Shown: in pieces, positions 42,894 through 50,475 of the stretch
Layout: each line of letters opens with the position of its first letter
Numbering within the stretch: the first letter of the stretch is position 1
DNA from: Escherichia coli
Lineage (GTDB): Bacteria > Pseudomonadota > Gammaproteobacteria > Enterobacterales > Enterobacteriaceae
DNA: 64,000 nt
NCBI RefSeq assembly: GCF_003334815.1
Contig: NZ_QOWO01000015.1
Reading direction: 5' to 3' (one strand)
Program-made: the position numbers and the translations under genes
Notes under the pieces: generated by a model
Told to the model about the DNA's origin: nothing
Database searches by the model: none
What the model saw: only the letters and a program-made list of their open reading frames with translations

Positions 42894-42920
42894 TCAAGTC
42901 CGGCGGGTCGCTGCCGATAA
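42894..42920 (+). promoter_or_regulatory. Candidate sigma-28 class 3 promoter for flgKL
   Basis: GCCGATAA at 42913-42920 with a partial TAAAGTTT-like element (tcaagtcc) 11 nt upstream. Confidence 0.5.
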
Positions 42921-42953
42921 TACTCTGTAATTGAAGGCTTATAAGGAACCTCC

Positions 42954-44597
42954 ATGTCCAGCTTGATTAATAACGCCATGAGCGGACTGAACGCGGCCCA
43001 GGCGGCGTTAAATACGGCAAGTAATAATATCTCCAGCTATAACGTTGCCGGATATACCCGCCAAACCACTATTATGGCGCAGGCCAATAGCACGTTGGGC
43101 GCTGGCGGCTGGGTTGGCAATGGTGTCTACGTTTCTGGTGTGCAGCGTGAGTATGATGCGTTTATTACCAACCAGTTACGTGCGGCGCAGACGCAAAGTA
43201 GCGGTCTGACTGCCCGCTATGAGCAGATGTCGAAAATCGACAATATGCTCTCCACCAGTACCTCTTCGCTGGCAACACAGATGCAGGATTTCTTCACCAG
43301 CCTGCAAACGCTGGTGAGTAACGCGGAAGACCCGGCAGCGCGCCAGGCGCTGATTGGGAAATCAGAAGGATTGGTGAATCAGTTTAAAACCACCGATCAA
43401 TATCTGCGCGACCAGGACAAACAGGTCAATATCGCGATAGGTGCCAGCGTTGATCAGATCAACAACTACGCTAAACAAATTGCCAGCCTGAACGATCAAA
43501 TCTCGCGCCTGACAGGCGTGGGGGCAGGGGCGTCACCTAACAATCTGCTGGATCAACGCGATCAACTGGTGAGCGAATTAAACCAGATTGTTGGTGTAGA
43601 AGTCAGCGTTCAGGATGGCGGCACTTATAACATCACGATGGCCAATGGTTACTCACTGGTTCAGGGAAGTACGGCGCGGCAACTGGCGGCAGTTCCTTCC
43701 AGCGCTGACCCTTCTCGTACGACTGTCGCTTATGTTGATGGGACGGCAGGCAATATTGAGATCCCGGAGAAATTACTGAATACCGGGTCGCTGGGCGGCA
43801 TTCTGACATTCCGTTCTCAGGATCTGGACCAGACGCGTAATACGCTTGGACAACTGGCGCTGGCATTTGCCGAGGCTTTCAACACCCAACACAAAGCCGG
43901 ATTTGATGCTAACGGCGATGCCGGTGAAGATTTCTTTGCTATCGGTAAGCCCGCGGTTCTGCAAAACACGAAAAACAAAGGTGACGTTGCGATCGGTGCC
44001 ACGGTAACTGATGCCTCCGCGGTACTGGCGACAGATTACAAAATCTCGTTCGATAATAATCAGTGGCAGGTCACCCGCCTTGCCAGCAATACCACTTTTA
44101 CGGTGACGCCGGATGCCAACGGTAAAGTGGCATTTGATGGTCTGGAGTTGACGTTTACAGGAACGCCTGCCGTTAACGACAGCTTCACGCTGAAACCAGT
44201 AAGTGACGCCATCGTCAACATGGATGTATTAATCACCGACGAAGCGAAAATAGCGATGGCGAGCGAAGAAGATGCGGGTGATAGCGATAACCGCAACGGT
44301 CAGGCCCTGCTGGATCTGCAAAGCAACAGTAAAACGGTGGGCGGTGCGAAATCCTTTAACGACGCTTATGCCTCGTTAGTGAGTGATATCGGTAATAAAA
44401 CCGCGACGTTGAAAACCAGTAGCGCCACGCAAGGTAATGTGGTGACGCAGCTTTCCAATCAGCAGCAGTCGATTTCCGGTGTCAATCTCGATGAGGAGTA
44501 CGGAAATCTGCAACGTTTTCAGCAGTATTACCTGGCGAATGCGCAGGTTCTGCAGACGGCAAACGCGATTTTTGATGCGCTGATTAACATTCGCTAA
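42954..44597 (+). CDS. flgK: Flagellar hook-filament junction protein 1 FlgK, 547 aa
   Basis: Recognised translation. Confidence 0.95.
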   Translation: MSSLINNAMSGLNAAQAALNTASNNISSYNVAGYTRQTTIMAQANSTLGAGGWVGNGVYVSGVQREYDAFITNQLRAAQTQSSGLTARYEQMSKIDNMLSTSTSSLATQMQDFFTSLQTLVSNAEDPAARQALIGKSEGLVNQFKTTDQYLRDQDKQVNIAIGASVDQINNYAKQIASLNDQISRLTGVGAGASPNNLLDQRDQLVSELNQIVGVEVSVQDGGTYNITMANGYSLVQGSTARQLAAVPSSADPSRTTVAYVDGTAGNIEIPEKLLNTGSLGGILTFRSQDLDQTRNTLGQLALAFAEAFNTQHKAGFDANGDAGEDFFAIGKPAVLQNTKNKGDVAIGATVTDASAVLATDYKISFDNNQWQVTRLASNTTFTVTPDANGKVAFDGLELTFTGTPAVNDSFTLKPVSDAIVNMDVLITDEAKIAMASEEDAGDSDNRNGQALLDLQSNSKTVGGAKSFNDAYASLVSDIGNKTATLKTSSATQGNVVTQLSNQQQSISGVNLDEEYGNLQRFQQYYLANAQVLQTANAIFDALINIR

Positions 44598-44608
44598 GGG
44601 GAGATAAG

Positions 44609-45562
44609 ATGCGTTTCAGTACACAGATGATGTACCAGCAAAACATGCGTGGTATCACCAATTCTCAGGCAGAATGGATGAAGTACGGCGAACAGATGTC
44701 GACGGGTAAGCGAGTCGTTAACCCTTCTGACGATCCCATTGCTGCATCACAAGCCGTAGTTCTCTCCCAGGCACAGGCGCAAAACAGCCAGTACACGCTG
44801 GCGCGTACTTTCGCCACTCAAAAAGTGTCACTGGAAGAGAGTGTACTTAGCCAGGTCACCACTGCTATCCAGAATGCTCAGGAAAAAATTGTCTACGCCA
44901 GCAATGGCACCTTGAGTGACGATGACCGGGCCTCGCTGGCTACGGATATTCAGGGGCTTCGTGACCAGTTGCTGAATCTGGCAAACACCACTGACGGTAA
45001 CGGGCGCTACATTTTTGCCGGTTATAAAACAGAGACTGCGCCGTTTAGCGAAGAGAAAGGGAAATACGTCGGTGGAGCAGAAAGTATTAAACAACAGGTC
45101 GATGCTTCGCGTTCGATGGTGATAGGGCACACGGGTGACAAAATTTTCGACAGTATTACCAGCAACGCGGTAGCGGAACCAGACGGTAGCGCTTCTGAAA
45201 CCAATCTTTTTGCCATGCTGGATAGTGCCATCGCAGCCCTGAAAACGCCGGTCGCGGATAGCGAAGCGGATAAAGAAACCGCCGCTGCGGCGTTAGATAA
45301 AACCAACCGCGGACTGAAAAACTCGCTGAACAATGTGCTGACTGTTCGCGCGGAATTAGGCACGCAGCTGAACGAACTGGAGTCGCTGGATTCATTAGGT
45401 AGCGATCGCGCTTTAGGGCAAACGCAGCAGATGAGCGATCTGGTTGATGTGGACTGGAATGCAACTATTTCATCTTACATCATGCAGCAAACGGCATTGC
45501 AGGCATCGTATAAAGCATTTACCGATATGCAGGGATTGTCGCTCTTCCAGCTCAGCAAATAA
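44609..45562 (+). CDS. flgL: Flagellar hook-filament junction protein 3 FlgL, 317 aa
   Basis: Recognised translation. Confidence 0.95.
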   Translation: MRFSTQMMYQQNMRGITNSQAEWMKYGEQMSTGKRVVNPSDDPIAASQAVVLSQAQAQNSQYTLARTFATQKVSLEESVLSQVTTAIQNAQEKIVYASNGTLSDDDRASLATDIQGLRDQLLNLANTTDGNGRYIFAGYKTETAPFSEEKGKYVGGAESIKQQVDASRSMVIGHTGDKIFDSITSNAVAEPDGSASETNLFAMLDSAIAALKTPVADSEADKETAAAALDKTNRGLKNSLNNVLTVRAELGTQLNELESLDSLGSDRALGQTQQMSDLVDVDWNATISSYIMQQTALQASYKAFTDMQGLSLFQLSK

Positions 45563-45715
45563 TTTCGCTTTAAAACATATCATGAAACTGGGTATGTTTT
45601 GTCTGCCTGCTCTGGGATCGCTGGGGCGGGCATTTTTTTGCCTATTTTGCATTGTTGGTTAGCAAGGATGCCATTCGATGAATTTTAATATGTTGATTCA
45701 AAGATGAAATAAAAA

Positions 45716-45745
45716 AGCCCTGGCAGTTACCAGGGCTTGATTACT
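45716..45745 (-). terminator. Rho-independent terminator downstream of rne (hairpin shared by convergent flgL and rne)
   Basis: Hairpin gccctggcagttaccagggc flanked by an A-run on + (T-run on the minus strand). Confidence 0.65.
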
Positions 45746-45757
45746 TTGAGCTAATTA

Positions 45758-48700
45758 TTACTCAACAGGTTGCGGACGCGCAGGAGCGGCAGAGGCATGA
45801 TGTGTTGCCGTATGACCACCTGCGGCACCTTTACCTTCGAAGGCAAAAGTAGGGCGCTGCCAGTCACTGTGACGCGGTGCCTCCGGAACATATTCCGGTG
45901 CTGGAGCGCGCGTCATTGGCGCGGTAGCGTGGTTATGCTCAACGGTGACCTCAGGTTCGACCGCAGCTACCGTTTCAACTTCTGCTGCGACTTCAGCGAC
46001 TACTGGCGCGGCAGGTTGAGCAACAACTTCAGGTTCAGCAACTACAACCTCAGCAGTTTCGACAACTTCTTCAATATCTGCCGTCTCTTCCTGCGGTTCA
46101 ACCACCGGTTCTGCTTGTTCTGCAACTTCCTGGGCTACGGCAACATCAGACTCGGTAATCACCTGCGGCTGTTCAGTTACCGCGGCAGCGATCACTTCAG
46201 GATGCGTCGTTTCAACCACTTCCGGTTGCGGTTCGGCAACCTGAACGGGGGCTTCTACGACACCGGCCACTTCTTCAACAACTGGCGCGCTAACAACCGG
46301 TTCGATAGCGGCGGCGACAGGGACCTCAGTCACCATCGGCTGCACATGTACTTCTTCCTGTTCGCGCTGCTCTTCAACCTGTACATCTTGCGGACGTACA
46401 ATTGGATAGCGGATCCAGACTTTGCCAGAGGCCAGTTCCGGAGACGCGCACGCTACGGTCAACGGCATTGGCGACTGGGTTGGATAACGCTCGTCACGAT
46501 AGCGACGACGACGCTGACCACTTACGCGCAGGTGACGAGGCGAGCGGCGAGAACGACGCGGCATGCCACCGTTGTCACGGTTATCAGCATTGTTCTCTTC
46601 TTGCTGTTCTGGTGCAGTTTGCGCTACGACTGGCAGCGGGACTTTCACCAGTTCTGTGCGTGGAGCTGGCGCTTCCTGAACAATTGGTTCGGCAGCGACA
46701 GTTTCTTCAACCACCGGTGCGACTACCGCTTCTTCGGCTACGCTTTGCTCGTAACGCACTTTCTGATTGAGCTGACGCTGTTTACGACGCGGCTGAACCG
46801 GACGTACACGTTCTTCCTGTTCGGTTTCCTGAACAGATTGCTCTTCAACATTCAGCGCCTTCGCTTCTTGTTGCGCCTGACGTTTATCATCATTACGGCG
46901 GCGGCTACGTTCACGACGCGGCGCTTGCTGCTCGTCGGCGGTACGCGCTTTTTCCGTTACCTCAGCCTGCTGACGGCTCTCACGCGTCTCGGCAGTCTGC
47001 TGCTGTGCCTGGCGACGATTACGACGGTTTTCTTCGCGATTATCGCTGCCTTCAGTACGTTCACTACGGGTGTCGCGGCGCTCATTACGGTCACGGCGGT
47101 TGTTCTGACGAGGCTTGCGACGATCCTGTTGACGTTCCGGTTTCGCTTCTGCTTTCGGTGCTGGTTGCTCGGTCGGTTTGGTTTCTTCACCACCGCTGAA
47201 CAGCGCTTTCAGTGCGCCGAAGAAGCGGCTCAACAGCCCAGGTTGTGCAGGAGCTGCTGGTGTTGCCGGTGCAGCTTTCGGTGCTGGAGCTACAACAGGC
47301 GCGGCAGGTTCAGCTGGCGTTGGCGCAGGCGGCACATCCGGCATGGCAAAGGTTGCCAGCGCAGGTTGTTCCGGACGCTTACGTTCAGCGAACTCTTCTT
47401 CAGACGGCAGCGCCATCGCTTCTTCATGCAGCTTCGGCAGCATGTAGCTTAAGGTTGGGGTTTCTTCCCCTTTACGCACGCGCAGCACGTGGTAGTGCGG
47501 GGTTTCCATCTGATCGTTTGGCACAATTACACAGCGCACACCGTCCTGACGAGTTTCAATGGCATTTACCGCAGAACGTTTTTCATTCAGCAGGTAAGAA
47601 GCGATTGGCACAGGAACAATGGCGTGAACTTCCTGGGTGTTCTCTTTCAGCGCTTCTTCTTCGATCAGACGCAGAATAGAGAGCGACAGCGATTCGTTGT
47701 CACGCACGGTGCCAGTACCAGAACAACGCGGACAAACGTGATGACTGGATTCACCCAGTGATGGGCTCAGGCGCTGACGGGACATTTCCAGCAGGCCAAA
47801 GCGAGAAATATGGCTGATTTGAATACGCGCACGGTCCTGACGCACCGCTTCACGCAGACGGTTTTCTACCGCACGCTGGTGGCGTACTGGCGTCATGTCG
47901 ATGAAGTCGATAACAATCAGGCCGCCGAGGTCACGCAGGCGCAGCTGACGAGCAATCTCATCGGCAGCTTCGAGGTTAGTGTTAAACGCGGTTTCTTCGA
48001 TATCGCCGCCGCGGGTCGCGCGTGCGGAGTTGATGTCGATGGCCGTTAACGCTTCGGTGCTGTCGATAACAATGGAACCACCAGACGGCAGACGAACTTC
48101 ACGCTGGAAGGCGGACTCGATCTGTGACTCGATCTGGTAGTGGCTGAACAGCGGGATCTCGCCGGTGTACAGTTTGATTTTGCTGCTGAAATCCGGGCGA
48201 CCTAATGCAGCGATATGCTGACGTGCCAGTTCGAGCACTTTCGGGTTATCGATAAGGATTTCGCCGATGTCCTGACGTAAGTAATCGCGGAATGCGCGAA
48301 CGATTACGTTGCTCTCCTGATGAATCAGGAACGGGGCCGGGCGGCTTTCAGCGGCTTTTTTGATGGCTTCCCAGTGTTTCAGACGGAAGCTTAAATCCCA
48401 TTGCAGCGCCTCAGCAGATTTGCCGACGCCAGCGGTGCGCACGATAAGCCCCATGCCTTCCGGCAGTTCAAGGCTTGCCAGTGCTTCTTTTAATTCGGTA
48501 CGGTCGTCGCCTTCGATACGGCGAGAAATGCCACCCGCGCGCGGGTTGTTCGGCATCAGAACCAGATAGCTACCCGCCAGACTGATAAAGGTGGTTAATG
48601 CCGCGCCTTTGTTGCCGCGCTCTTCTTTATCGATCTGAACAATGACTTCCTGACCTTCACGCAACACATCTTTAATGTTGGGACGACCATGAGCACTGTA

Positions 48701-48943
48701 GTTAGCAGGGAAATATTCGCGGGCAATTTCTTTTAGTGGGAGGAAACCGTGACGTTCAGCGCCGTAATCAACAAAAGCAGCTTCCAGACTCGGTTCAATG
48801 CGGGTGATTTTACCTTTGTAGATGTTTGCCTTTTTCTGCTCGTGCCCTGGACTTTCGATATCCAGGTCATACAGACGCTGCCCATCTACAAGGGCAACGC
48901 GCAACTCTTCCTGCTGAGTTGCGTTGATTAACATTCTTTTCAT
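45758..48943 (-). CDS. rne: Ribonuclease E, 1061 aa: N-terminal catalytic half plus Arg/Pro/Glu-rich low-complexity degradosome scaffold
   Basis: Translation [61 protein letters not shown]...; length 1061. Confidence 0.97.
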
Positions 48944-49304
48944 CGTAACTTACTCATTATTCTTACATTGACGACTAAGCTGCGGGCAAAGTAACGCCTT
49001 TCCGGGTGTGAACCGATGGCCTCGTGTCTAGTCGCGTCGCCAACCTCACGGTTATCGTCAGCTCAAAGAGGCGCAGAGTGTCGGTTGCCCGTTTTTCATG
49101 CGGAAAAACAGCGCAATTATCAAAGAAACAGACTGGGTATTACTCTCCAGAAATATTTCCATCTACCGGTAAGGACTGCAACCCGCAGCCCGCTAACTGC
49201 CTGAAAGATCAATACGTCTTACGCCATTGCTGCGTGGATGATCGGTCGGGCAAAATGGGTTATTCCGTAAAATTTCTTGTTTTAACAAGGATGGACACGG
49301 AAAC
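48944..49304 (-). promoter_or_regulatory. Long rne 5' untranslated leader (autoregulatory)
   Basis: Non-coding region upstream of the rne ATG; extent taken from the known 361-nt leader, not determined from the sequence. Confidence 0.55.
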
Positions 49305-49398
49305 GGCCTCATTATTCCACTGCAAGCCTTGTTATAGCAAGATGACTTTTACCATTTATCACCCGCTTACTCACAGTTTTTTCACTTCTTGCTGGTGA
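49024..49398 (+). CDS. yceQ: Doubtful ORF antisense to the rne leader (corresponds to the annotated hypothetical yceQ)
   Basis: 124-aa ORF with no recognisable domain and no convincing RBS; likely non-coding. Confidence 0.2.
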
Positions 49399-49515
49399 TT
49401 GGTTTAATAACCATCAATAAAGTGATCACGCAGTGAAGTAATAAGGTGCAAAAGTAAATATAAGCATAGAAAAATGAGTGGCGCGAATCCTGTTGGCTAA
49501 TTAGAATCGCCAACC

Positions 49516-50475
49516 ATGAAAACAGAGACTCCATCCGTAAAAATTGTTGCTATCACCGCTGACGAAGCGGGGCAACGTATCGATAACTTTTTGCGTACCC
49601 AATTGAAAGGCGTACCAAAAAGTATGATTTACCGTATTTTGCGTAAAGGCGAAGTGCGGGTGAACAAAAAACGTATTAAGCCTGAATATAAACTCGAAGC
49701 GGGTGATGAGGTGCGTATTCCACCGGTTCGCGTTGCTGAGCGGGAAGAAGAGGCGGTTTCGCCACATCTGCAAAAGGTGGCGGCGCTGGCGGACGTCATC
49801 TTATATGAAGATGATCACATCCTGGTGCTGAATAAACCTTCCGGTACGGCGGTACATGGCGGCAGTGGTTTAAGCTTCGGCGTTATTGAAGGTTTGCGGG
49901 CGTTGCGCCCGGAAGCGCGGTTCCTTGAACTGGTTCATCGTCTTGACCGGGACACCTCAGGTGTTTTGCTGGTAGCGAAAAAACGCTCGGCGTTGCGTTC
50001 TCTGCATGAGCAATTACGTGAAAAAGGGATGCAAAAAGATTACCTGGCGCTGGTGCGCGGTCAGTGGCAGTCGCATGTGAAGAGCGTTCAAGCACCGTTA
50101 CTGAAAAATATTCTGCAAAGCGGCGAACGTATCGTGCGTGTGAGTCAGGAAGGCAAACCGTCGGAAACACGCTTTAAAGTGGAAGAACGCTATGCATTTG
50201 CCACCCTGGTGCGTTGTAGCCCGGTAACAGGGCGTACTCACCAGATCCGTGTGCATACACAATATGCGGGTCATCCGATTGCCTTTGACGATCGCTACGG
50301 TGACCGTGAATTTGACAGGCAGCTCACTGAAGCAGGCACGGGATTAAATCGCCTGTTCCTGCACGCTGCAGCGTTGAAGTTTACTCATCCGGGGACCGGT
50401 GAGGTGATGCGTATCGAAGCTCCGATGGATGAAGGTTTGAAGCGTTGTTTGCAAAAGCTGCGTAACGCGCGCTAA
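49516..50475 (+). CDS. rluC: 23S rRNA pseudouridine(955/2504/2580) synthase RluC, 319 aa
   Basis: Recognised translation with S4 domain and RluA-family catalytic motif HRLDRDTSG. Confidence 0.95.
   Translation: MKTETPSVKIVAITADEAGQRIDNFLRTQLKGVPKSMIYRILRKGEVRVNKKRIKPEYKLEAGDEVRIPPVRVAEREEEAVSPHLQKVAALADVILYEDDHILVLNKPSGTAVHGGSGLSFGVIEGLRALRPEARFLELVHRLDRDTSGVLLVAKKRSALRSLHEQLREKGMQKDYLALVRGQWQSHVKSVQAPLLKNILQSGERIVRVSQEGKPSETRFKVEERYAFATLVRCSPVTGRTHQIRVHTQYAGHPIAFDDRYGDREFDRQLTEAGTGLNRLFLHAAALKFTHPGTGEVMRIEAPMDEGLKRCLQKLRNAR

Follow-up and report, generated by a model that had tools for sequence, protein, structure and literature searches.

flgKp, the FliA (sigma-28)-dependent class 3 promoter of the Escherichia coli flgKL operon, and the conservation of its partial -35 element across Enterobacteriaceae

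The 65-nt gap between flgJ and flgK in Escherichia coli raises the question of whether flgKL is served by a promoter of its own or relies solely on transcripts that run through from the class 2 promoter that precedes flgB and depends on FlhDC. We examined this gap in a 64,000-nt stretch of contig NZ_QOWO01000015.1 (assembly GCF_003334815.1), referred to here as the window. A preliminary description of this DNA had proposed a weaker, sigma-28-like class 3 promoter of flgKL in the gap, composed of a degenerate -35 element and, after an 11-nt spacer, a -10 element. Inspection of the sequence confirms that both octamers and the spacer are exactly where that description put them (Table 1), that the -35 octamer agrees with TAAAGTTT at five of eight positions as counted, and that the whole site falls between the flgJ stop codon and the flgK ATG. 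The surroundings are the canonical flgNMA / flgBCDEFGHIJ / flgKL / rne region. Over 601 nt that include the site, the sequence is 100% identical to that of E. coli K-12 MG1655, and this stretch occurs in one copy per genome, between annotated flgJ and flgK, in 5,426 complete E. coli genomes. Window coordinates equal NC_000913.2 coordinates minus 1,094,647, an offset that was anchored on the RegulonDB flgKp and flgMp 81-mers. The -35 element lies outside coding sequence, since the flgJ stop codon is 5 nt upstream of it, and the end of the -10 element is separated from the flgK ATG on the same strand by 33 nt, a position and orientation that fit a promoter of late flagellar genes.

Table 1. Features of the flgJ-flgKL region in window coordinates
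Feature	Position	Strand	Remarks
flgJ stop codon TGA	42886..42888	+	5 nt upstream of the -35 element
-35 element TCAAGTCC	42894..42901	+	5/8 match to TAAAGTTT; within the published FliA ChIP-seq motif
Spacer GGCGGGTCGCT	42902..42912	+	11 nt
-10 element GCCGATAA	42913..42920	+	8/8 consensus match
Predicted transcription start	42927..42929	+	RegulonDB G42927; alternative A42929
flgK Shine-Dalgarno core AGGA	42944..42947	+	Invariant across genera
flgK coding sequence, hook-filament junction protein 1	42954..44597	+	First gene of the promoter
flgL coding sequence, hook-filament junction protein 3	44609..45562	+	Second gene of the unit
flgL 3'UTR and intrinsic terminator	45563..45640	+	Strong terminator: stem 45604-45632, then T run; ~77-nt 3'UTR

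The consensus used for sigma-28 is TAAAGTTT-n11-GCCGATAA (PMC2859248). Mutation of positions T1, A3 and G5 of the -35 element inactivates the aer promoter (PMC2859248), and C-13 and G-12 of the -10 element are critical for sigma-28 (sigma-28 cryo-EM study). In TCAAGTCC, T1, A3 and G5 are all consensus nucleotides; the -10 octamer is perfect and thus includes C-13 and G-12; the spacer has the 11-nt length of FliA promoters; and the -35 element, at five of eight, retains a weakly positive matrix score (+2.5 bits). When up to three mismatches are allowed, the composite pattern occurs three times on the two strands of the window against an expectation of 0.56, and the number of chance matches expected on the plus strand of this 65-nt gap is ∼1.7e-4. 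This last figure speaks against the alternative that the site is a chance resemblance and that flgKL depends entirely on read-through from the flgB promoter, to which the modest -35 match lends some weight.

A FliA matrix scan, which the preliminary description had put forward as a check, was carried out with a position weight matrix built from published FliA ChIP-seq sites from which flgKL was left out. In this leave-one-out setting, the flgK site ranks second (matrix of 51 sites) or fourth (matrix of 24 strong sites) of 127,946 window positions, with a whole-site score of 16-18 bits vs 26-30 bits for flgM. Two intragenic sites, at 36828-36855 (plus strand, inside flgD) and 58465-58492 (minus strand), have FliA matrix scores as high as that of flgK and are absent from the 52 published FliA ChIP-seq sites; they are either below detection or unbound. 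Since two sites score equally without ChIP binding, sequence alone would not have been proof of a promoter at flgK, and the same two sites count on the side of chance resemblance. The exact octamer GCCGATAA occurs 10 times in the window, compared with 2.46 expected, and none of 100 shuffled sequences reaches 10 copies. Codon or dipeptide usage (Ala-Asp-Asn, Pro-Ile and similar), as opposed to promoters, may account for this excess. Among these 10 copies, only those of flgM and flgK are accompanied by a positive -35 matrix score; the remaining eight have no usable -35 element.

Published binding data cover exactly these nucleotides. In Table 2 of Fitzgerald, Bonocora and Wade 2014 (PMC4183435), the FliA ChIP-seq motif assigned to flgKL is TCAAGTCCGGCGGGTCGCTGCCGATAAT and its fold-above-threshold score is 47; the flgKL row is the same in the published correction to that paper. 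This 28-mer matches the window exactly at 42894-42921, and coordinate mapping places the centre of the ChIP-seq peak at 42918. RegulonDB lists the promoter as flgKp (ECK120009892, +1 G 1137574), an entry reproduced in a supplementary file of PMC4183435, and its 81-mer was located at 42867-42947 of the window. The nucleotides of our site are identical to those of this K-12 promoter, which is the flgKL FliA site of Fitzgerald et al. (2014), with no difference. The reconstituted holoenzyme also selects this spacer in vitro: in genomic SELEX with RpoF holoenzyme alone (Shimada et al. 2017, PMC5493296), the flgJ>flgK spacer gave a peak of 27.2, and the only higher peak was that of rpoF/fliA (46). 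The same article cites work in which this holoenzyme transcribed flgK in vitro. Occupancy in vivo together with selection by the holoenzyme in vitro is difficult to reconcile with chance resemblance.

The flgMN promoter in the same window offers a direct comparison. Like flgKp, flgMp (34747-34774, minus strand) has an 8-nt -35 element, an 11-nt spacer and GCCGATAA, and flgMN, like flgKL and fliDST, is a dual class 2/class 3 operon. The flgM -35 element, TAAAGATT, matches the consensus at seven of eight positions and scores 10.8 bits, vs five of eight and 2.5 bits for TCAAGTCC. The term "weaker" in the preliminary description is therefore apt for the sequence match, but it does not extend to measured binding: the ChIP-seq scores of flgMN and flgKL are 48 and 47 (fliDST and tar score 43 and 57 in PMC4183435), and the SELEX peak of flgM is 15.0 vs 27.2 for the flgJ>flgK spacer (PMC5493296). 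The 5/8 site at flgK is thus bound to about the same degree as the 7/8 site at flgM. We attribute this strong binding despite a partial -35 element to the way in which the sigma-28 holoenzyme contacts its promoters, with extensive and strong contacts at -10 and weak contacts at -35 (cryo-EM study). Counting matches to the consensus understates the strength of sigma-28 promoters, in which the -10 element dominates binding.

Binding is matched by FliA-dependent expression. In published qRT-PCR data, given relative to wild type (Fitzgerald 2014, Table S2), deletion of fliA lowers flgK to 0.206 and flgB to 0.647, and pBAD-fliA in this background brings flgK to 1.70, with flgB at 0.588. Deletion of flhD reduces both transcripts, to 0.0031 for flgK and 0.0012 for flgB; when pBAD-fliA is introduced into the flhD deletion, flgK rises to 1.44 and flgB stands at 0.0018 (not significant). 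FliA alone therefore raises flgK ∼470-fold with the flgB promoter inactive, which indicates that a promoter dependent on FliA lies downstream of that of flgB. The restoration of flgK, and not of flgB, contradicts sole dependence on the flgB promoter. Microarray data agree in direction, with flgK reduced 5.5-fold when fliA is deleted and raised 2.2-fold 5 min after sigma-F induction (Zhao et al. 2007, PMC1935009). RNA-seq of the fliA deletion recorded a decrease of flgK from 318 to 138, which is 2.3-fold and not significant (PMC4183435), in contrast to the five-fold drop by qRT-PCR, and the authors of the 2014 study called the contribution of FliA to dual-regulated transcripts little under their conditions. 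In a set of lacZ fusions spanning -200 to +10, 15 of the 20 intergenic ones were FliA-dependent (Fitzgerald et al. 2018 preprint, 10.1101/188474), and those that were inactive or masked by high background are named as fliA, fliD, fliL, pntA and cvrA. By elimination from these five, we infer that the flgK fusion was active and FliA-dependent.

Read-through over the flgJ-flgK junction is nevertheless real, and it counts in favor of a chance resemblance. A product across the junction was obtained by RT-PCR in wild type and was absent in the flhD deletion (Fitzgerald 2014), and a scan of 42500-43200 returned zero terminator-like sites. The lack of a terminator between flgJ and flgK and the junction RT-PCR product together indicate that flgKL is a dual class 2/class 3 operon that is also read from the flgB promoter, and the output of flgKp in wild-type cells is partly masked by this read-through. 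The binding and expression data, the low chance expectation and the conservation described below leave it exceedingly unlikely that read-through is the only source of flgKL mRNA. Equally slender is the prospect that the gap contains a sigma-70 promoter to which the FliA-like boxes are incidental. Some flagellar promoters (fliL, fliA) combine sigma-70 and sigma-28 recognition, although we found nothing that specifically favors this at flgK; a sigma-70 consensus scan of 42500-43200 returned zero sites, and flgK expression, which falls to 0.003 when flhD is deleted, is restored by FliA alone.

The start of transcription from flgKp is a predicted one. The RegulonDB +1 at G42927 rests on human inference of promoter position (evidence code HIPP), not on mapping. 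The numbering of the tar promoter (C-13 G-12 ATAA N-7; sigma-28 cryo-EM study) makes the last A of the octamer position -8, and by this analogy the flgK +1 would lie near 42928. Among purines at a constant distance from the -10 element, only A42929 is conserved (96%) in related loci, and start sites have been described 18-22 nt from the motif centre (10.1101/188474). We infer the exact start nucleotide from these considerations and give it as a range in Table 1. In the portions available of the Cappable-seq and SMRT-Cappable-seq supplements, there is no entry at 1137573-1137577 or for flgK that would represent a mapped FliA-dependent 5' end, and the strain used may have been non-motile; flgK goes unmentioned in the Salmonella ChIP-exo paper. 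At the other end of the unit, FlgO has been described as a fliA-dependent, Hfq-bound sRNA of ∼75 nt that is processed from the flgL 3'UTR (PMC10578931), and the flgL 3'UTR in the window corresponds to it. Beyond the flgL terminator lies a second, symmetrical hairpin at 45715-45738 (both strands) with a minus-strand T run, which looks like the rne terminator.

We then asked how the site is conserved. Flanking sequences of 80 flgK loci were collected from one-genome-per-species assemblies as the best 80 matches; they represent ∼25 genera, all Enterobacteriaceae (Escherichia, Salmonella, Citrobacter, Enterobacter, Kosakonia, Kluyvera, Buttiauxella, Cedecea, Atlantibacter, Franconibacter and ∼15 others), and with E. 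coli they make 81 sequences. In all 81, the top matrix match in the 200 nt upstream of flgK starts with TCAAGT and continues with an 11-nt spacer and a -10 element of the form xxCGATAx. The C in this -35 element is not imposed by the matrix, because the matrix prefers TAAAGT. When the search was widened to both strands of the whole ∼5.6-kb locus, the site was still the best match in 71 of the 75 loci compared. Twenty-six lineages were also aligned with MAFFT without any anchor, and from the flgJ stop to the flgK ATG only three blocks are fully invariant, namely CTCAAGT (42893-42899), CGATA (42915-42919) and AGGA (42944-42947), and the spacer columns in this alignment are essentially random. 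In a profile anchored on the site, most spacer columns carry 0.03-0.86 bits, and only the last spacer base, which adjoins the -10 element, is conserved, at 1.5 bits. This profile required TCAAGT and CGATA and is circular for those columns, so the claim of invariance rests on the matrix-selected sites and on the unanchored alignment. Salmonella enterica subsp. arizonae illustrates the pattern: its flgK gene is preceded by TCAAGTCC-N11-GCCGATAA at the orthologous position, 32 nt before the ATG, with a spacer, ACGTCGTAGCT, that differs from that of E. coli flgKp. Invariant boxes beside a spacer of fixed length that drifts in the same alignment and over the same phylogeny are as predicted for a two-block sigma-factor promoter, and a chance resemblance would not be expected to keep both boxes unchanged in ∼25 genera when the spacer sequence beside them varies freely.

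Constraint from the flgJ coding sequence was considered as a cause of the -35 conservation and was ruled out: the flgJ stop codon ends 4-7 nt before the -35 element in 68 of 75 related loci. What remains mildly curious, and is the sole curious point of the locus, is that a non-consensus C at position 2 of the -35 element is invariant across genera. One explanation would be that the promoter is real and that CTCAAGT also carries a second signal, either a site for some other regulator or an RNA element carried by the flgB-L read-through transcript. None of the 81 sequences departs from C42893 or from the non-consensus C42895, -35 positions 7-8 and the whole spacer vary, the block lies outside the flgJ coding sequence, and, given the weak contacts of sigma-28 with the -35 element in the structural study, such strong constraint is not obviously expected. 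Against this, we identified no candidate factor or structure, and the gap has no Rfam match; C is the second most common nucleotide at position 2 of the 52 FliA sites (e.g., modA, fliL and ybhK) and may be simply tolerated; and the genera sampled are all Enterobacteriaceae with shared ancestry. We therefore regard a second signal as improbable. It is a still unlikely, if somewhat less doubtful, suggestion that the invariance of C42895 and C42893 marks the "degenerate" -35 element as a selected state and not as decay, whether through selection for a sub-maximal -35 element or through an overlapping second signal. In the first of these cases, the sub-maximal -35 element would set the timing and strength of flgKL relative to other class 3 promoters.

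The comparison of these loci also brought up several observations apart from the promoter itself. The flgK 5'UTR (window 42921-42953 and its counterparts) falls into two length classes according to the distance from the -10 element to the ATG: 30-33 nt in Escherichia, Salmonella, most Citrobacter, Intestinirhabdus, Yokenella and Kluyvera, and 39-43 nt, with a conserved CAGGAC, in Enterobacter, Kosakonia, Leclercia, Lelliottia, Buttiauxella and others. The difference between them is an indel of ∼9-10 nt just downstream of the predicted start. Two public records carry unexpected labels. CACSKA010000011.1, labelled Chryseobacterium sp. 18061, contains an Enterobacteriaceae-type flgJ-flgK locus with a FlgK 73% identical to that of E. 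coli and a promoter region one base from that of 'Citrobacter sp. 18056' of the same project, and CAAEVH010000050.1, a MAG labelled Raoultella, contains a Citrobacter-like flgK locus. Both are probably cases of contamination or mislabelling.

Elsewhere in the window, features with some resemblance to FliA sites were noted. The flgA-flgB intergenic region (35511-35538, plus strand) has a perfect sigma-28-type -10 element, GCCGATAAC (35530-35538), within the class 2 flgB promoter region, just downstream of the FlhDC-box-like AACGGCATAAATAGCG and with a poor -35 element, CCCATTTT, at -1.0 bits. The published ChIP-seq list contains no FliA peak at 35511-35538, and overexpressing fliA in the flhD deletion leaves flgB uninduced, which together indicate that the -10 element of the class 2 flgB promoter resembles a FliA -10 element without being part of a FliA promoter. 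The flgF-flgG gap (39134-39304) is unusually long at 171 nt. Genomic SELEX with the sigma-28 holoenzyme gave a peak of intensity 6.7 in it, at ∼39221 (Shimada et al. 2017, PMC5493296), and the gap has no reported FliA ChIP-seq site and no strong matrix match. The Rfam search of 34000-50000 returned rne5 as its sole match: a full-length hit to RF00040, the RNase E 5'UTR autoregulatory element, at 48968-49304 (minus strand) upstream of rne, with a score of 260 bits.

We conclude that the site is almost certainly flgKp, the FliA (sigma-28)-dependent class 3 promoter of the E. coli K-12 flgKL operon. The proposal of a class 3 promoter with a degenerate -35 element is thereby borne out by the ChIP-seq motif, the RegulonDB entry, genomic SELEX and the FliA-dependent, FlhDC-independent expression of flgK, and the grounds for it are demonstrated ones: the sequence and its conservation, binding by FliA both in living cells and in vitro, and expression that requires FliA and not flgBp. 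The promoter is already known, from RegulonDB and from every genome-wide FliA study, and is an ordinary one; our only additions are the conservation profile across genera and the remark that the RegulonDB +1 is inferred and not mapped. As a first-stage check the exercise was useful, in that the preliminary description, made without tools, gave the exact nucleotides of an alternative-sigma promoter that exists and has experimental support.

At this promoter, FliA-RNA polymerase binds the perfect -10 element GCCGATAA and the partial -35 element TCAAGTCC across the canonical 11-nt spacer and is predicted to initiate ∼7-9 nt downstream of the -10 element, within the start interval given in Table 1. 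The product is a flgK-flgL mRNA of ∼2.7 kb that ends at the terminator near 45640 and whose 3'UTR yields the sRNA FlgO. Transcription that enters from the FlhDC-dependent class 2 promoter ahead of flgB covers flgKL as well. Completion of the hook-basal body, which frees FliA from FlgM, then allows the hook-filament junction proteins to be made independently of FlhDC. Similar behavior has been reported for Salmonella, where flgK has the same dual class 2/class 3 architecture (Kutsukake and Ide 1995; Wozniak et al. 2010, as cited in later work) and its class 3 promoter is reported to be necessary for swarming and for the rapid repair of sheared flagella (Wozniak et al. 2010). The role of flgKp, as already described in Salmonella and E. 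coli, is an FlhDC-independent supply of hook-filament junction proteins and FlgO for late assembly, swarming and filament repair.
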